Shown here: positions 5,254 to 64,000 of the stretch, in pieces
Numbering within the stretch: position 1 is the stretch's first letter
Layout of the letters: each line of letters opens with the position of its first letter
Assembly (NCBI GenBank): GCA_963708075.1
Contig: OY970194.1
Span: 6,272,001 to 6,336,000, forward strand
Reading direction: 5' to 3'
DNA from: Sedimentisphaerales bacterium
GTDB lineage: Bacteria; Planctomycetota; Phycisphaerae; Sedimentisphaerales; Anaerobacaceae
Length of the DNA stretch: 64,000 nucleotides
Made by a program: the position numbers and the translations under genes
Notes under the pieces: generated by a model
What the model saw: only the letters and a program-made list of their open reading frames with translations
Databases searched by the model: none
Told to the model about the DNA's origin: nothing

Positions 5254-5673
5254 CTATTTCTCGTTGTCGGTTGTTGACGGTGCGATTCGCGCGATCAGAC
5301 CCTCGATGTAGTTCACGAAGGCCCTCGTCTGATCCAGCCACGGGCGGACTTCGTCTGTTTGAAACACGACGAAATCCGCGTAGTCCCCTTCCTGGCGGGT
5401 GCTGAACAGCCGGTCAAAATGCCTGCCAAGCTCCGTGGGAATCAGCCCGGTCTTGACGAAGTCGCGATGCAACAGAGAGCGTAAGTGTCCGTGTTTGCTC
5501 GTGGAGATCCCTCGCGTCACCAGCAATGCCGAGACGGCGTAGAAGCAGGCGTAGTACAGCCGACTCACATAGGCATTCAAGTGTCCCGCCTCCAGAAGCA
5601 GACTCGCCTCCTCGATCGCCTCACGGGCCCGGTCCATCCGATAACCGGCTAAGGCTTTGATCGGATCATTCAC
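5254..5673 (-). CDS. HEPN domain protein (MNT-HEPN pair 1)
   Basis: SRLYYACFYA, SKHG, RQEGDY motifs; overlaps the upstream MNT gene by 4 nt. Confidence 0.88.
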   Translation of the reverse strand: MNDPIKALAGYRMDRAREAIEEASLLLEAGHLNAYVSRLYYACFYAVSALLVTRGISTSKHGHLRSLLHRDFVKTGLIPTELGRHFDRLFSTRQEGDYADFVVFQTDEVRPWLDQTRAFVNYIEGLIARIAPSTTDNEK

Positions 5674-6014
5674 ACACGCACCCCATCACGCTCGACGTTC
5701 TTGTGGAAAGGCATCTCCCTGTAGGGTAGAGACTCCCACCGGCGCCGGTCATACGTGACCAGCGTCAGCATGGCCCCCGTCTCAAGCTCCAACGGATAGA
5801 CGTTCGAGAGAATCTGATCCTTCAGGGCGATGCTCGCCGGCTGATCCACGAGCACGAGGATATCGTAATCCGAGTCTTCCCGAGCGTCCCCCCGGGCACG
5901 CGAGCCATACAGAATGACGTCGGCATCGGGCACGACCTTTCTGATGGTCTGCCTGCACTTGTCCAGCAGGACCTTGTCGTCCTCACGCCCTTGCCACGCA
6001 TCGATAGAGATCAT
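5670..6014 (-). CDS. Minimal nucleotidyltransferase (MNT)
   Basis: [21 protein letters not shown], the Pol-beta-like GS...DxD motif. Confidence 0.9.
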
Positions 6015-7238: not shown

Positions 7239-8075
7239 AGAGGATAGGGGGTCGCACCTACACATTTCACATTTTCTACCAACACTTCCAGTCTTCGGGC
7301 CGACGGTTCTTTTGCATCTGACAGGGGCACTTCGATCCGAATCCACGGGCTCATTGTAGAGCCACGGCGACAAAAATACAAAGAGGAAACCCGGAAACTG
7401 CGAATTACACCAGGCACCCAGCGCGGCCTTCGGCTGCGATCAGGATCATTTCACGCGGAGACGCGGAGGCGCAGAGAAGAACCGAGCCGAAACATAGTTT
7501 TCAAACTCTGCGTCTCCGCGCGAGCACAACAAGATTCAAATAGAGTCCGCATGGGCTAAAGCCCATCCTACCAATTCCTCTGTGTCCCTGGCGGTCTCTG
7601 CGGCTAAAAGAACCTGGATTCCCGCCTCCGCGGGAATGACATTTTTGGAATCCGTGTCAGAAGAATCGGTGGGCCTGTCTGAGCCTTGTAGCACAGTCGC
7701 CCTCGGCTGTGTCTTACGGTTTCCCCAGCCGAGGGCGGCTGGGCTACATTTCGGCTGGCAGGGGGGCCGTGTCTTCATTATTGATTCCGCTGAAGAACCC
7801 CCAAAGACCGCTGCGACACCCGCATTTTCTGGGCCAAGAACGAGGGTAGAAAGGTCACAAGCAGGGCTTTTTCAGCGGAATCCATTATTCACTATTCATT
7901 TCCGGCACTGCCTAATGAGAGTTGTGGGGGGGGGCGGGGGGAATCGGTGTGCGGTGCACACCCTACATCTTACAGGATAAGCAACACTGATAATTCCAAC
8001 TGGTTTTGAGATAGTTCCTTAGCCCTTGCGGGACAAGAGGTTATAGGCAACGGTGAGTCGGTGGGAGTTTTGTAG

Positions 8076-8103
8076 TTGACAAACACACACCATTGGTTAC
8101 AAT
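8076..8103 (+). promoter_or_regulatory. Putative sigma70 promoter upstream of the SEAQ-ANR gene
   Basis: TTGACA-16 nt-TACAAT. Confidence 0.6.
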
Positions 8104-8344
8104 GTGGCGAACGTCGCGACGGGCGACGTGCGGCGGCCGGCGTGCGGTCGGCGGCCGATGATAAGCAGATGAGCGTGTCCACGTGTGCGTGGACGATTCG
8201 ACGGGCACGACGCGCTTACGCAAGAGTAAGCGTGGCGCCCGGCCATTGCCGAGGACTCCGCATGGGCTAAAGCCCATCCTGTGAATCTGAACAGCGAATC
8301 GTAAATCGTAAAGGGTAAATCGTAAATCTTGGAGGGATCACCCC

Positions 8345-9679
8345 ATGGCTAGTGAAGCACAAGTCACCGCCAACCGTCGTAATGCAGCGAAGTCCACCGG
8401 GCCCAGGACGAAGCAGGGCAAGGCCGTCGTCGCGGACAATGCGATCAAGCACGGCCTGCTCGCCCGGCAGGATGTCGTCCTGGGCGAAGACTTGCAGGAG
8501 TTCGAGCTCCGCCGCCGGCAATGGCTCGCGGAGCTGCAGCCGGTCGGGTATGCGGAAATCACGCTGGCTGAGCGCATCGCGGGCCTCGCCTGGCGGCTCA
8601 AGCGAGCCGAACGCCTGCAGAACGAGGCCTTCGACTCCCTGCTGGCCAGGGAACTCGCCGAGTCGATGGCGGACTTCGACGACGAGCTGTCGCCTGAGGA
8701 CGAGCGGGAGCTGATGAGCGATCCGAGTGCCGATCCCCGCCTGGCGGTCGGCCGGATGGTCGCCGGGGATTTCCACTGTCACAGGGCCCTGGAGCGGCTG
8801 ATGATGTTCGAGCGGCGGATCGAGAACAGCCTGTACAGGACCATGAAAGAGCTGCGACAGGTCCAGCGAGAGCGGAAGGCGGACGGTGAGCACAGTCCAG
8901 TCCTTGGACCCCCTGTGTCCCGGGTGGCGCCGCCGAACTCGTTGGCTTCGTCCCATTTCCTTGAGATGGGTCCGATGCAAGCCACCCAGAACTCAGGAAC
9001 TTGGGACGAACCCAACTCGTTTGACGGTGCTCATTCGAATGGTTCCGACCATCCGCAAGACCACGGGCAAACGGGTTTGCCCGTGCCACCCGGTGCAGGC
9101 AATTCTGTGAAACAAAGCCAATCCGGGGCGTCGCAGGCGGACCATTGCTTCGCGGAGACGCAAGATGTTGCATCTCTACAGCCTGACGATGCCGCCGGTT
9201 CTACCGCGAGTGATTGTGCGAAACAAAGCCAAATTCTGCCGGAAGCGCCGTGCGAAACAAAGCCAATGGAGTCGGAGGTTTCAAGTTTGAAGTGTGAAGT
9301 GTCAAGTGACGGCCCTGCCCTTCAGACTTCACACGGCACACATGACACTACCCGCCAGGTGCCTGACGATGCCGCCGGTTCTGCCGCGAGTGATTGTGCG
9401 AAACAAAGCCAAATTCTGCCGGAAGTGCCGTGCGAAACAAAGCCAATGGATTCCGGAGTTTCAAGTATGAAGTTTGAAGTGTCAAGCGGCGGCCCTGCAC
9501 TTCAGACTTCACACTGCACACTTGACACTACCCGAGAAACGCCTTGCGGCGTCACTACAAACGAGGACGGCGATGCGAAACAAAGCCAACGCCGCAAGCG
9601 TGTCGCCGGCGCCGGGGCCATGCCGCGGCCTCGGCCGCGAGTCGCATACCACTGCCACGACATAGCCCGCTCGTATTGA
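8345..9679 (+). CDS. Uncharacterised protein starting MASEAQVTANRRNAAKSTGPRT; ordered helical region to ~aa 180, then the frame runs through repeat DNA
   Basis: GGAGG RBS; GC3-rich coding to ~8880; the C-terminal part is translated REP and AAACAAAGCCAA repeats. Confidence 0.75.
   Translation: MASEAQVTANRRNAAKSTGPRTKQGKAVVADNAIKHGLLARQDVVLGEDLQEFELRRRQWLAELQPVGYAEITLAERIAGLAWRLKRAERLQNEAFDSLLARELAESMADFDDELSPEDERELMSDPSADPRLAVGRMVAGDFHCHRALERLMMFERRIENSLYRTMKELRQVQRERKADGEHSPVLGPPVSRVAPPNSLASSHFLEMGPMQATQNSGTWDEPNSFDGAHSNGSDHPQDHGQTGLPVPPGAGNSVKQSQSGASQADHCFAETQDVASLQPDDAAGSTASDCAKQSQILPEAPCETKPMESEVSSLKCEVSSDGPALQTSHGTHDTTRQVPDDAAGSAASDCAKQSQILPEVPCETKPMDSGVSSMKFEVSSGGPALQTSHCTLDTTRETPCGVTTNEDGDAKQSQRRKRVAGAGAMPRPRPRVAYHCHDIARSY
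8922..9091. repeat. Composite GGGTGGC-type palindromic (REPIN/MITE-like) element inside the ORF
   Basis: gggtggcgccgccgaactcgttgg...ttgggacgaacccaactcgtttgacggtgct...cacgggcaaacgggtttgcccgtgccaccc; relatives at 23522-23613, 33029-33060 and 53093-53347. Confidence 0.85.
9107..9590 (+). repeat. Array of six G(C/T)GAAACAAAGCCAA repeats, including a 180-bp tandem duplication
   Basis: Copies at ~9107, 9218, 9252, 9398, 9432, 9575; 9181-9354 duplicated at 9361-9534. Confidence 0.9.
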
Positions 9680-9747
9680 TCGCCGGCAAAGACCGGCAAC
9701 GCGGCTCGGCGTGCAGACTGCCCCTCTGAAAAAGCGCGGCGTTGATG

Positions 9748-9823
9748 TGTAGGGTGGGTTCTCAACCCACGCGTCAAGGAATGCTCCGCTCGAAGAACCG
9801 CGTGGGTCAAGGACCCACCCTAC
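9748..9823. repeat. Inverted GTAG-REP doublet
   Basis: tgtagggtgggttctcaacccacgcg ... cgcgtgggtcaaggacccaccctac. Confidence 0.8.
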
Positions 9824-10039
9824 GAGGGGCCCAAGGCCATTTTCATCTTCTTGTGGTGTGCGGAAAGACGCATGAATGGTTTCGCTTGGCCACGATCGCA
9901 AAACGTCGTGTTTGTGCAGCAGGCATTCTCTGCGGAAAGGGTGGACGCAGGTTTCCTCTGGTGGGAACGTGGGCGGGCGGGTATAAAGGTGGCCTTGTGG
10001 GCAGTGTGGCTATGGTGTCTGTGGGTAAGGAGAATCGCT

Positions 10040-60263: not shown

Positions 60264-60791
60264 ATGACGACCGAACGCATCGCCCTGGCACGATTCATTC
60301 GTGACATTCCGGACTGGCCGAAGAAGGGCATCCTGTTCCGGGACATCACGCCACTGTTGGCCGATCCGCAGGCCTTCCCGGCCGCGATCGACGCCATGTG
60401 CGAGCCATTCGAGGACGCGGGCGTTGAGTATGTCGCCGCTGTCGAGGCTCGCGGATTCATCTTCGGAGCCGCCGCGGCCGCCAGGCTTCGCGCCGGCTTT
60501 GTCCCCATCCGCAAGAAGGGCAAGCTGCCCTGGCAAACGGAGAGCGCCACCTACGAGCTCGAGTACGGCGTGGACACGCTGGAGATGCACCGCGATGCGC
60601 TGCGCCCGGGAGCGAAGGTGCTCATGGTGGATGATCTCCTCGCCACCGGCGGCACGATGCGAGCGGCCTGCCACCTCGTCGAAAAAGTCGGCGGCAAAAT
60701 CGTCGGCGTCGCCTGTCTCGTGGAACTCAAAGCCCTCAACGGCCGAAAACGCCTCACCGGCTACGACGTCCACGCGGTCATCTGTTATTGA
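60264..60791 (+). CDS. apt: Adenine phosphoribosyltransferase
   Basis: IPDWPKKGILFRDITPLL, EARGF, RKKGKLP, LEYG, VDDLLATGGT. Confidence 0.97.
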   Translation: MTTERIALARFIRDIPDWPKKGILFRDITPLLADPQAFPAAIDAMCEPFEDAGVEYVAAVEARGFIFGAAAAARLRAGFVPIRKKGKLPWQTESATYELEYGVDTLEMHRDALRPGAKVLMVDDLLATGGTMRAACHLVEKVGGKIVGVACLVELKALNGRKRLTGYDVHAVICY

Positions 60792-61669
60792 CTGCCACTT
60801 TTTCTTTGCCCCGTCACGACACGGTCGTGGCCGATCATGTCTTTGTCCACCTTGATGGACGGGAATAGACCCGTCTTCTCCAGAAGCTCGCGGACGGCGG
60901 GGCCCTGGGTGTAGCCGATCTCCAGGAGCAGGGCGCCGTCGGGCTTCAGGAAGCGGCCCACCTGCTCGCTGATTCTGCGATAGATGTCCAGGCCGTCCTG
61001 CCCGCCGTACAGGGCGAGCCGAGGCTCGTAATCCTTCACGTTTTTCTCCAGTTCCTCGTATTCGGCGGCGCTGACGTAGGGCGGATTGCACGCGATCAGG
61101 TCGAACTGCGTCACGTCGAGCGGCGGGAGCAGCGGCTCAAACAGGTCGCCGTGGAGCAGCTCGATCCGGTCTTCGAGTTGATACTTTTTGATGTTCCTGG
61201 CGGCCACGCCCAGTGCGGCCTCCGAGAGATCCGTGGCGACGACGCGTGCGTCCGGCACGTTCTTCGCGACGGCGACCGCGATTGTGCCGCAGCCCGTGCA
61301 CAGGTCGCAGACGTGGCGGGGCCCCGTGCGCTGCCGGAGAAATTCGATGGCCCGCTGCACGAGCAGCTCGGTCTCCGGCCGGGGAATCAGGCAGTCGGGC
61401 GTGACCTCGAATTCAATGGAGTAGAACTCCGTCCTGCCGACGAGGTAGGCGATGGGCTCGTGCTGGCCGGCACGCTTGACCAGCTCTCGCAGCTTGGCCA
61501 AGTACTCCTCCTCGACGACGCGGTTGTATTGCGTGTAGAGCTCGATCCGTTTCAACCCGAGCACGCTGGACAGCAGAAGCTCTGCGCTGAGGCGGGGTGC
61601 GTCCACCCCTTTCTGCGTCAGGTACTCCGTCGTCCACGTCAGGAGCTTCTGAATCGTCCATTCACTCAT
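60785..61669 (-). CDS. prmC: Release factor glutamine methyltransferase
   Basis: EPIAYLVG, LIPRPETE, DLCTGCG, NPPY, LLEIG. Confidence 0.95.
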   Translation of the reverse strand: MSEWTIQKLLTWTTEYLTQKGVDAPRLSAELLLSSVLGLKRIELYTQYNRVVEEEYLAKLRELVKRAGQHEPIAYLVGRTEFYSIEFEVTPDCLIPRPETELLVQRAIEFLRQRTGPRHVCDLCTGCGTIAVAVAKNVPDARVVATDLSEAALGVAARNIKKYQLEDRIELLHGDLFEPLLPPLDVTQFDLIACNPPYVSAAEYEELEKNVKDYEPRLALYGGQDGLDIYRRISEQVGRFLKPDGALLLEIGYTQGPAVRELLEKTGLFPSIKVDKDMIGHDRVVTGQRKSGSQ

Positions 61670-62352
61670 TCGTGTTGCCTCGCCACAAGAAGATTGTCCT
61701 GCCGGACGATGCGAATGGCGAAGTCATACTTGTCGATTTCCAGCGCCATCTCGACGTCCTGCGGATAGCAGTGCGGCGGATCGGGCTCGGCCAGCCTGGC
61801 AATCTCGCCGCTCTGCAGCACGAGTGTCCGGATCGCGTGCGTATCCTGTTGGCGGCCCTGCAGCAGGTTCCGCAGGTACAGGGCGCACAGCTCATCCTCA
61901 TCCGTGCGTATCAGCCCGTTGTATCCCATGGCCACAATCGTGACCAGCGGGGGGGCCTCGTCCAGGATGGCCCGCGCCGTGGCCTTGGCCGTGACGAGCG
62001 ATCCGGCATAGATCGCCGTCGCGCCTGTCGCCGCCTCGACCCCAACAGTCCCCGCCCGCGTCGACTGGATGACGACCTTATCTTTCAACGGGGCTCGTGC
62101 CATATCATGGGGCGAATTGCCGAAATCAAAGCCCTCCGGCCGCTTGCCGTCCACCTCGCCTACGCACACCTCCCCAACGCCGTTATCCCGAAGTCGCAGT
62201 GCATCATCCGGCTCGGCAACCATGACAATCCGGCTGGCCCCACGCGCCAGCGCAACCGCCGCCGTCGTGAAAGCCCGGAAAACATCTATGATGACTACCG
62301 TTCCCCGGGCCCGTCGTGCACCTTCAATGAGACTCTCTATCCTGATCTCCAT
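61666..62352 (-). CDS. comB: 2-phosphosulfolactate phosphatase family protein
   Basis: VIIDVFRAFTT, GEVDG..GFDFGNSP, STRAGT, EDELCA. Confidence 0.88.
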   Translation of the reverse strand: MEIRIESLIEGARRARGTVVIIDVFRAFTTAAVALARGASRIVMVAEPDDALRLRDNGVGEVCVGEVDGKRPEGFDFGNSPHDMARAPLKDKVVIQSTRAGTVGVEAATGATAIYAGSLVTAKATARAILDEAPPLVTIVAMGYNGLIRTDEDELCALYLRNLLQGRQQDTHAIRTLVLQSGEIARLAEPDPPHCYPQDVEMALEIDKYDFAIRIVRQDNLLVARQHE

Positions 62353-62507
62353 AGAACTCCAAAGAATGCTACCCTGCTACCAACGCCGAGAATACACCAC
62401 CCCCGCCCCCAGGCAAGCAGAATTCCCCGCTGCCTCAGTCTCGCCCGCCCCCAAGCGACATGCCTGCCTGTGCCATAAATCACTGCCTGTAAAACAGTTA
62501 CATTCAG

Positions 62508-63256
62508 ATTGGCTTTGTTTCGCACGGTAGCCGCGGCCAGAAATTGGCTTTGTTTCGCGCAATCCGCCTGTCGTGTAGGGTGGGCTGTGCCCACCATTGT
62601 CCCAGCAGCAAATTGGCTTTGTTTCGCACACCACCCAGCCTGGAAATTGGCTTTGTTTCGCAAAGACCCTCCTTGGCCCTCCCGTAGGGTGTGCCATGCA
62701 CACCATCTGCCTGACAGGGGAGATTGGCTTTGTTTCATACCGGCCTTTGTTCGTAGTGACGCCGCAAGGCGTTTTTTCCGACGCCTGACAGAATTGGCTT
62801 TGTTTTACGCGCAGGCACGATCCGCACTTTCTCTCATAACCCTCTTTCCGACCAGCAGTTAGCATCCACCCTACCTCCTGCAGATTGGCTTTGTTTCGCA
62901 CGATAGCCCCAGCCCTGGTGGGCGGCCCCCCGACAAATTGGCTTTGTTTGGCACAATCAGGTCTTTCGTTCCCGCCCAACAAGCCTGGGCAAATTGGCTT
63001 TGTTTCGCACAGCACCTCCTCAGCCCCCTCTTGCGGTCCGCCGGGCAAAGGAATTGGCTTTGTTTTGCACAGCCGCCCGTCTGGCAATTGGCTTTGTTTC
63101 ACAGAATCAGCCACGCGGTTGTCTCCCGCCCGCTTGCCTGTCTCCTGCAATTGGCTTTGTTTCGCATAATCGGCTCGTTGGCTGTCCATGTTATTGTCAG
63201 GAGCAGAGCAACAAAGCAATCTCGACGCCGGGAATGGAATTGGCTTTGTTTTACAG
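62508..63256 (-). repeat. Interspaced array of 13 repeats (minus strand GCGAAACAAAGCCAAT; invariant core ATTGGCTTTGTTT on plus)
   Basis: Core starts at 62508, 62543, 62612, 62646, 62723, 62793, 62884, 62937, 62993, 63053, 63087, 63150, 63239; periods 34-91 bp. Confidence 0.95.
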
Positions 63257-63266
63257 AATCAGCCAT

Positions 63267-63326
63267 GCGTGGGTCCCCGGCTCTCTTCGTGTTGCCCCGA
63301 TTGGCAAAGATTTGGGCCTCGCTGAC
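63267..63326 (-). pseudogene. 20-codon remnant homologous to the N-terminus of the 8345 gene
   Basis: VSEAQIFANRGNTKRAGDPR vs ASEAQVTANRRNAAKSTGPR, 10/20 identical without gaps; AGGAG RBS just upstream. Confidence 0.7.
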
Positions 63327-63382
63327 ACGGTCTCCTATCGCCTCTTTCCTATCCAGGTTCTGTTGTATTTTGTTTAATGAAT

Positions 63383-63411
63383 ATCATACTCAGTGCGGCA
63401 ATATTAGTCAA
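63383..63411 (-). promoter_or_regulatory. Near-consensus sigma70 promoter pointing into the remnant and array
   Basis: Minus strand TTGACT-17 nt-TATGAT in an AT-rich stretch. Confidence 0.7.
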
Positions 63412-63871
63412 GTGAAAAATCCGGAAATCTTCTCAGCCGCTGATCTGCCGGGACTCGCTGACGATTGCCGGTCACTGACAACCGATCTTCATCCCCAGAT
63501 TGCGCAGATTTCACAGATTCAAAAAGGGATTGCTGTGTGAGCTTAGACGCTTGTGCCACGGTGACTTATGTTATCACTACTTTAGGCCACCGAACATGTC
63601 CCGCCTGACAAATAGCACTTCAGTGGCGTCCTGACGTGCGTTTCAACACCTTCACGCAAGAAAGACCCTTGCCTACTCGGCATTCATCCGGCATAATACA
63701 CGATTGATGGGCATCACTGATGAAGCTGCGGGGAAATGGTTCGAGGTATTAGCTGGCAACGTACCTGCAACAGCTCGGGGACCTGTCAGCTTATTCACGA
63801 TAATGAGATGTGGAACTTGGCCCCATTCTCCCGAGGCGGAAGGCCGTAGAGTTTAGCGAGACTTCTGAGCG

Positions 63872-64000
63872 ATGACAATTGACTACAGACTGGATGATCT
63901 CGGCTGGTTCGAATTTGAACAGCTCGTTCAGGCTCTCGTGAAGTCACACCTTGGTATGGGGATAGAGGCATGGGGCGGACATGGTGATTGGGGTCGCGAC
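63872..64000 (+). CDS. 5' part of a protein with a restriction-endonuclease-like (Mrr-type PD-(D/E)xK) N-terminus; truncated by the window edge
   Basis: MTIDYRLDDLGWFEFEQLVQALVKSHLGMGIEAWGGHGDWGRD: FE.L helix followed by D.G.D. Confidence 0.6.
   Translation, partial: MTIDYRLDDLGWFEFEQLVQALVKSHLGMGIEAWGGHGDWGRD

Follow-up and report, generated by a model that had tools for sequence, protein, structure and literature searches.

A protein gene followed by a short-repeat array forms a very probably mobile element family in a Sedimentisphaerales bacterium

We describe an element family in which a protein gene is followed by an array of short repeats, and which has been copied as a module to new intergenic sites and repeatedly reduced by internal deletion. 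About 40 copies are present in the source genome (7.5 Mb, 92.8% complete); most of them lack the gene but have kept a promoter and multiplied the repeats, so that deletion copies made of promoter and array can outnumber the genes. It is very probable that this protein-and-site family is mobile. Descent of the protein from phage small terminases appears somewhat better supported than not, and we tentatively read the whole as a minimal selfish module: a small-terminase-derived protein, its cos/pac-like sites, and non-autonomous copies.

Results

A gene-less array and its decayed gene remnant

The analysis started from a 64,000-nucleotide stretch of contig OY970194.1 (hereafter, the window), in which a sequence-only reading had noted a gene-bearing copy at 8.1–9.7 kb and a gene-less array near the far end. 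The latter lies on the minus strand, where 13 exact copies of AAACAAAGCCAAT occupy 62508..63251 at periods of 34–91 bp, separated by 12 irregular spacers. A search of the whole window with the 12-mer at up to two mismatches returned 20 matches against 0.77 expected. Ahead of the array, on the same strand, are a putative sigma70-type promoter (TTGACT-17-TATGAT, 63383..63411, consensus match only) and an AGGAG ribosome-binding site (63332..63336) 3 nt ahead of a GTG at 63328; promoter, ribosome-binding site, and array were all present where they had been placed before.

Between the ribosome-binding site and the first repeat, the interval 63267..63328 (minus strand) holds the decayed 5' end of a family gene, about 20 codons long. 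A DNA profile of gene 5' ends, built from 46 loci in other genomes, returned this remnant as its top non-gene match genome-wide (E 0.02), which settles the question of alignment significance that the earlier reading had raised; the next two non-gene matches also sit just ahead of arrays. With a protein PSSM the remnant scored 28.5, compared to a maximum of 19.2 among 1500 intergenic windows. The proposed 20-codon remnant is therefore significant, but it is out of frame with the start codon: the peptide begins at a GTC (63326), whereas the GTG linked to the ribosome-binding site opens an unrelated 25-aa ORF (63328-63251) that stops at the first repeat. The remnant peptide is therefore not translated as written. 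A remnant above the 99th percentile of the PSSM test was seen in only three of the 32 gene-less arrays of the genome, indicating that most such remnants are too decayed to score; the PSSM was used for these counts because a start-codon-anchored test misses the frameshifted remnant of the window.

Two repeats of the array, at 62793..62896 (minus strand), flank an IHF-like site (62835-62862) and make up a canonical 91-bp unit, the arrangement that follows the gene elsewhere. Three spacers contain GTAG-type REP hairpins on the plus strand, at 62753..62773, 62684..62704, and 62575..62595, with 25, 10, and 5 matches outside arrays, respectively. Contigs from run X1, which may be the source sample, are identical to 62570-62857, 62982-63178, and 63241-63562, and an assembly artefact is therefore unlikely.

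The leader of the window array showed no BLASTN similarity to that of the 8.3-kb copy, and a weak match (E 0.4) to a third leader type of the family, the second sigma70 type described below. Judged by its leader, the window array would be a deletion derivative of a sister subfamily, not of the 8.3-kb copy. The descent from the 8.1–9.7 kb element that had been proposed is thus unsupported; the real derivative of that subfamily is an array elsewhere in the genome, at C1:4,680,018.

The gene-bearing copy at 8.3 kb

All features of this copy are on the plus strand. An IHF-like paired site noted by eye (8019..8043), judged against the IHF consensus, lies upstream of a putative sigma70-type promoter (TTGACA-16-TACAAT, 8076..8103, consensus match). 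A conserved 180-aa domain follows (8345..8884), with an N-terminal motif also seen in small terminases and then a predicted helical hairpin. The ORF continues as a non-conserved read-through tail (8885..9679) across an array of six repeats (9110..9590; three exact, three with one mismatch), and the copy ends in a 3' tail (9591..9708) that is 77–90% common to five other gene-bearing copies and to the split-off end of a sixth. The order of promoter, gene, and six same-orientation repeats given by the sequence-only reading stands; its picture of a full gene followed by repeats needs correction, in that the repeats lie in mixed frames inside the 3' part of a 444-aa ORF, of which residues 1–180 alone are the conserved domain. 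The repeat is open in three forward frames, which accounts for many spurious ORF tails across arrays. A coding repeat was ruled out by the periods, which are mostly not multiples of three.

The copy joins the leader of one subfamily to the tail of another. Its subfamily has a long GC-rich leader (window 8130-8330; 76–78% over ~220 nt in four loci), which may be a structured 5' RNA. Dense mosaics, in which GTAG-type REPs mix with further hairpin repeats and tandem 6-7-mers, occupy 7480-7960 and 9740-9830 of the window, and a toxin-antitoxin-like pair of HEPN and nucleotidyltransferase genes (5254-6014, minus strand) lies about 2 kb upstream of the element.

About 40 copies in three leader subfamilies

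The source genome contains 248 exact 12-mers, whereas Markov models predict 0.2–9 per strand. They fall into 41 arrays of at least two copies, each confined to one strand, a count that leaves out one two-copy cluster without an exact copy. Eleven of the 12 repeat columns are conserved at 95–100%, and periods range from 32 to 375. Nine gene copies are present, one of them frameshifted, and all nine are followed by a same-strand array 65–265 nt behind the conserved domain, in line with the tight co-location and polarity of gene-bearing and gene-less copies expected earlier. The remaining 32 arrays are gene-less, one of these being the end of a split gene-bearing copy. At C1:4,778,158-4,780,600 the gene copy is frameshifted, and a transposase-like gene that is also present at several other sites interrupts its array.

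The leaders form three subfamilies (ECF-like, sigma70, and second sigma70). The ECF-like leader precedes six genes and at least 11 gene-less arrays, and an extended version of its motif has 12 matches in the genome, each ahead of an array. The first sigma70 leader belongs to three genes, that of the 8.3-kb copy among them, and to one gene-less array, at C1:4,680,018, whose leader is 78% identical to that of the subfamily over 224 nt. The second sigma70 leader precedes about ten gene-less arrays; its gene-bearing form was found only outside this genome (L049, E 5e-15). Sigma54 consensus boxes were seen in the leaders of the arrays at C1:211,949 and C1:1,388,807, and by eye many array leaders of a congener (G155, L225-L236) have a similar sigma54-like box with an IHF-like site upstream. 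Sixteen of the 41 arrays are on the leading strand (p 0.21), and 30 of 41 are co-directional with the downstream gene, compared to 59% expected (p 0.048, from rough gene calls).

Mobility and insertion sites

The first 300 nt of four gene copies at unlinked sites are 94–97% identical. In a tree built from 38 proteins, two clades are restricted to the source genome (support 100/100 and 98/92). The site of the window array could be compared across relatives. asnS directly adjoins comB in one congener (G155) and lies ~135 nt from it in another (G162); in the source genome the two are 3 kb apart, and the interval is made up of an 824-aa nSTAND3 gene and the array. Among 22 comB loci, searched at up to one mismatch, repeats occur in three (13 in the source genome, 5 in G163, and 1 in G169), a decayed unit was seen by eye in three more, and 16 are without one. 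The near-identical unlinked copies and the empty asnS-comB site argue strongly for mobility, which the sequence-only reading had considered and which the genome-restricted clades also indicate. An empty-site joint was sought among the contigs of four runs and none was found.

In the window, comB (2-phosphosulfolactate phosphatase family, 61666..62352) is followed by prmC (60785-61669), both on the minus strand. A host promoter-like site of this operon (TTGCCT-16-TATTCT, 62389..62416, minus strand, by eye) is found in most congeneric loci and lies ~90 nt behind the last window repeat. The divergent nSTAND3 NTPase gene, a cargo gene (PADLOC PDC-S73), starts in the window at 63872..64000 on the plus strand and corresponds to L213:2873-5347. 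The asnS-comB interval is a cargo hot spot, with an AAA-ATPase pair (NsnB/HEC-03B-like) in G152, G157, G161, and G171.

Of 23 congeneric genomes, 21 have close repeat pairs (1 to 178; zero with a reversed-pattern control), and gene matches within the genus range from 0 to 23 per genome. The homology between copies begins with a poly-A run and an IHF-like site ~210 nt ahead of the ATG and stops ~147 nt past the last repeat, at a REP-like motif; from leader to tail the copies in the source genome measure ~1.3–1.7 kb and have one gene. Five parsed copies showed no consistent inverted ends or target duplications, only differing 4–6 nt words; the left end of a sixth copy was mis-anchored, and the end analysis rests on the five. 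Mobility with no recognizable transposase, no inverted ends, and no target duplications leaves two options, a novel mode of movement or the borrowing of phage packaging.

The first of these options would be a new transposition route, in which an oligomer on an IHF-bent repeat pair acts as an end-binding handle and offers the element to a nuclease acting in trans, for example a Y1/REP enzyme; any terminase ancestry would then be vestigial and a phage unnecessary. The sharp ends fit this route, as do 13 Y1 transposase matches in the source genome, where no phrog_2 large terminase was found, and bursts in single species (178, 162, 128, 51, and 46 close pairs in the top congeners vs 0–15 in the others). 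However, consistent inverted ends and target duplications are missing from the five parsed copies, no catalytic fold was recognized in the protein, and the right-end motif is unspecific, since it also closes at least nine gene-free REP mosaics, several of them just ahead of host genes. We consider this route unlikely.

The repeat as a site

The link between gene and repeat extends beyond the source genome. We took 76 near-complete-match loci from metagenomes and viral sets and dropped 11 that were too short, at least 300 nt downstream being required. The 12-mer (up to one mismatch) was found behind the domain in 60 of the remaining 65 loci, compared to 1 of 53 in the upstream control, and in 28 of 29 loci of related genomes; the expectation that arrays would track the gene family elsewhere was thus borne out. 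Named sources of the homologs are Sedimentisphaerales and Phycisphaerae. Most outside loci have 1–3 repeats only, and their usual form is two direct repeats 89–91 bp apart with a conserved A/T-rich core between them. This core is within two mismatches of the IHF consensus in 25 of 31 units (mean 14.8 and maximum 23 in 200 shuffles). The canonical unit is found in 16 of the 41 arrays of the source genome, which has three HU/IHF genes. When the dereplicated periods were examined for helical phasing, 10.5 bp gave p 0.04, and the peaks at 9 and 13 were stronger. Some low-GC relatives (L058, L066, L084, L085, and L086) have tandem 9–11 bp partial copies, spaced by about one helical turn, after the second repeat.

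The link is strong but not universal. Five full-motif homologs from a sample of the phylum (L254-L258) show no repeat close to the stop when one mismatch is allowed. In family f36, all 11 truncated homologs lack both the N-terminal motif and the downstream repeat and so serve as a negative control provided by nature, although these 11 are kin to one another. They occur in the same phylum (L259-L268 and L273), one per genome, and in most of the cases shown lie upstream of acp-fabZ-fabF-like genes (named by eye). The f36 homolog is possibly a domesticated form.

Whether the target is RNA or DNA had been left undecided by the sequence-only reading. The repeat is antisense behind the gene at L117, L125, L130, L134, and L252 and in 10 of 29 loci of relatives. 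The 31 canonical units have no consensus RNA structure and no conserved hairpin, folding of the window array RNA does not stand out from that of its shuffles (z -0.51), and Rfam gave no match under E 1.8; a structured non-coding RNA, which should show conserved, covarying structure or an Rfam match, was set aside. Because the repeat occurs in either orientation in relatives, flanks an IHF-like core, and shows no RNA structure, the DNA side is favored, and the site probably acts as double-stranded DNA.

These data bear on a second alternative, that the gene-less copies produce a sponge or scaffold RNA under sigma70, ECF, or sigma54 control, offering single-stranded A-rich repeats to the protein or to a host RNA-binding protein. 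CsrB-like logic is the model for such an RNA. Each array has one polarity, and 21 of the 32 gene-less arrays keep promoter consensus boxes, albeit by patterns drawn from these same leaders. In the ECF-like leaders (n = 10, partly selected on the pattern) both boxes are 90–100% conserved and most columns of the promoter spacer 40–80%. REP-type motifs in the array spacers favor one orientation 28 to 0, as paralogous rather than independent observations (10 to 3 in a generic hairpin scan). Against a sponge RNA stand the two orientations behind the gene in other genomes, the absence of conserved structure in the units, the shuffle-like folding of the window array RNA, and the fixed 89–91 spacing around the IHF-like site, and we regard it as improbable.

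The protein and its link to small terminases

The family comprises 23,376 representatives (50% identity) at E ≤0.001, where the weaker homologs will include motif-only proteins, and 6,868 at E ≤1e-10. Pfam, NCBIfam, PHROG, and PADLOC returned no family for the protein and none consistently for a 147-row alignment. A PDB sequence search gave no match under E 1.6, the ESM Atlas only unnamed clusters, and Foldseek against pdb and viral sets no match at E 0.001. Two predicted models (pLDDT 89.6 and 84.6) are all-helical with a long hairpin. A wide fold search found generic helical hairpins (best Z 8.9, rmsd 3.4, 90 aligned; Z 8.6, rmsd 2.7, 74 aligned) and no solved TerS; this comparison barely covers residues 1–45. 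Neither family nor fold searches suggested a transposase, and no HTH was recognized.

A link to small terminases had escaped the sequence-only reading. Residues 3–40 match phage proteins, several of which match PHROG small-terminase families or precede large terminases. Profile comparison with TerS-like sets gave 98.5–98.8% (residues ~11–95) and 99.2% (residues 1–46), with sets that were chosen by motif, which makes the comparison partly circular. Small terminases are described in the cited passages as rings of 8–12 protomers built on a helical hairpin (PMC9611059, PMC11331095). The same passages present the HTH as the most conserved TerS feature (PMC9611059) and the TerS of P22, 44RR, and HK97 as lacking a defined HTH (PMC11331095). 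A four-copy prediction of our protein scored 0.71 against 0.01 for the best control (contacts agreeing at ≥68%, pLDDT ≥71), a mark that 20 of 30 known homo-pairs attain, as does 1 of 23 single chains. In the model one copy contacts two neighbors via opposite faces, which supports but does not show head-to-tail packing as an oligomer.

Distant members, picked by eye from few loci, neighbor an integrase and excisionase (L003), a primase (L130, L246), an integrase (L247), terS-terL (L131), or terL (L134), surroundings that resemble satellite islands. Cysteine-rich small-terminase-like proteins with the same N-terminal motif lie directly ahead of large terminases at L136-L184 (IMG/VR), several of them without a PHROG match. 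The 55 phage loci that carry the motif had no repeat arrays; their 253 kb contain 13 scattered matches (4.1 expected), of which 3 lie behind family members. INPHARED phages gave no tblastn match, plasmids gave five partial matches, and a single-protein scan of genome contigs gave three motif-level loci only. A canonical terS gene was rejected, no terL lying behind any of the nine copies in the source genome, where no phrog_2 large terminase was found. Taken together, we consider small-terminase ancestry moderately probable.

A third alternative is an anti-phage decoy, in which a stress-induced small-terminase mimic and its scattered decoy sites would poison phage packaging, much as satellites do with Rpp and Ppi, and hosts would retain the arrays because they protect. 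TerS-derived proteins are known to interfere in this way (PMC6739421), and both the ECF-like and sigma54 consensus leaders and the defense-type neighbors (the nSTAND3/PDC-S73 gene and the HEPN-nucleotidyltransferase pair) would fit. The protein itself has no PADLOC match, however, and gene matches that vary from 0 to 23 in one genus look selfish rather than tuned; the decoy is in our view quite improbable.

Spacers as products of shuffling

We sorted the 245 spacers into 132 families, of which the largest recur in 18, 16, 12, and 8 arrays in changing order. Matches elsewhere in the genome number at least three for 99 spacers, one or two for 19, and zero for 127; GTAG hairpins outside arrays total 650 genome-wide. 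The spacers read as products of shuffling among paralogous arrays and uptake of local repeats, not of CRISPR-like capture. One might go further and regard the arrays as neutral by-products, in which slippage and unequal recombination between paralogous loci multiply a repeat pair that also picks up REPs and 6-7-mers, only the gene and one or two sites being of consequence; the recurring and reordered spacer families, the 99 of 245 spacers with repeated genomic matches, the 1–3 repeats of most outside loci, and the mixed leader and tail of the 8.3-kb copy agree with this, but 248 exact copies with 11 of 12 columns at 95–100% while spacers diverge, together with the retained promoter boxes, leave it very little credence.

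Discussion

We propose, tentatively, that the family is a small-terminase-derived protein with cos/pac-like sites, a minimal selfish module that has given rise to non-autonomous copies, and we put its present job as packaging hijack at a little short of an even chance. The module would descend from the packaging gene and site of phage satellites. Protein from the few intact genes would form a head-to-tail oligomer of helical hairpins, like small terminases, and bind double-stranded DNA at the repeats on either side of an IHF bend, as at lambda cosB (R3-I1-R2). Lambda TerS binds R3 and R2 across I1, in a cosB of the order R3-I1-R2-R1 (PMC9026076), and SaPI TerS and Rpp enlist the large terminase of a phage (PMC6739421). 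Gene-less arrays would serve in trans as non-autonomous landing pads, more repeats giving more avidity. In the most speculative step, the bound complex would enlist the large terminase of an infecting phage, so that packaging starts at chromosomal sites and carries the element and its neighbors to new cells. Insertion at new sites would then need another enzyme, perhaps a Y1/REP transposase of the genome.

Such a terminase-derived module would account for the linkage of gene and array (9/9, 60/65, and 28/29) and for their joint loss in f36 (11/11). It is consistent with a site of double-stranded DNA type, a motif common to TerS-like phage proteins, the predicted helical hairpin and head-to-tail packing, and distant members next to integrase, primase, and terminase genes. 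Near-identical copies, clades restricted to one genome, and the asnS-comB gap agree with its selfish spread. Several observations speak against it. The profile match covers at most the first 95 residues, against motif-chosen sets, and there is no HTH; no phrog_2 large terminase was found in the source genome, and no arrays at the 55 motif-bearing phage loci; lambda and PICI cos sites precede the gene and have R2 inverted, whereas the sites here lie behind it and are mostly direct; L254-L258 have no repeat near the stop; and the promoter boxes kept in 21 of 32 gene-less arrays are needless for a DNA landing pad. Moreover, the module leaves the fixed REP orientation in spacers unexplained, and packaging alone makes no new insertion sites.

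At its boldest, the proposal would make this a phage parasite smaller than any before it, whose single-gene packaging module places dozens of cos/pac-like arrays along the host chromosome, so that any compatible phage would package host DNA from them; we consider that extension doubtful. If true, it would amount to built-in lateral transduction from many origins, present in several phyla, and gene-less arrays would be second-order parasites. The packaging reading, if true, would also add a new gene-transfer route in sediment Planctomycetota and a protein-site pair with which DNA could be loaded into phage heads.

Comparison with known systems

A literature search that covered few subscription journals found no description of the repeat or element, which agrees, within that coverage, with the earlier statement that no characterized system has this layout. 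P1 parS and others are IHF-bent protein docking sites, and P1 parS resembles the canonical unit in that an IHF site lies between two arms that carry protein boxes, over ~90 bp; unlike it, the element has no ParA/ParB pair and many chromosomal copies. CRISPR repeats are ~23–47 bp long, with spacers of near-constant length. Like CRISPR and TIGR-type guide arrays, the element has promoter-led interspaced repeats beside a gene. It differs in its 12–13 bp repeat, irregular periods of 32–375, spacers made of recurring genomic repeats, and use of both orientations in relatives; with no Cas1 (PF01867) match in the 92.8% complete genome, the earlier exclusion of CRISPR holds. An integron cassette array was also rejected, as no TIGR02249 match exceeded the cut-off and the unit has no conserved hairpin.

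REP/BIME mosaics with their RAYT transposases share with the element GTAG-type REPs, which fill its spacers and flanks, ends just before host promoters, and the presence of Y1 transposases, but the core repeat here is non-palindromic and tied to its own gene family. IS elements and MITEs form autonomous and non-autonomous pairs. As with these, deletion derivatives keep both ends, outnumber gene-bearing copies, and expand in lineage-specific bursts, and dispersed near-identical copies (94–97%) coexist with empty sites (asnS-comB in congeners). Unlike IS/MITE pairs, the element lacks a recognizable transposase, terminal inverted repeats, and target duplications, and its derivatives gain internal repeats.

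In lambda cosB/TerS, as here, short repeats flank an IHF site beside the gene of an oligomeric helical-hairpin protein (the oligomer being predicted in our case), and the N-terminal motif is common to proteins of PHROG small-terminase families. The element differs in being chromosomal and multicopy, in having its sites behind the gene, direct and 90 bp apart, and in lacking cosN, a large terminase, an HTH, and a fold match to a solved TerS. PICI/SaPI systems (TerS, Ppi, Rpp), as presented in part of PMC6739421, likewise pair a TerS-related gene with an adjacent site of its own, both on a mobile element. Distant homologs of our protein adjoin integrase, primase, or terminase genes, a likeness to PICI/SaPI found in part in those homologs only, as copies in the source genome are without integrase or primase. 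Rpp, unlike our protein, carries a winged HTH, and that part of PMC6739421 makes no mention of gene-less multi-repeat derivatives. Collectively, in how it works the element comes closest to a TerS-cos module or an IS/MITE pair, and by the tested features it belongs to neither; it is new as an element, its mechanism is a proposal, and a large uncurated protein family thereby gains a candidate cognate DNA motif and an element structure that make it directly testable.
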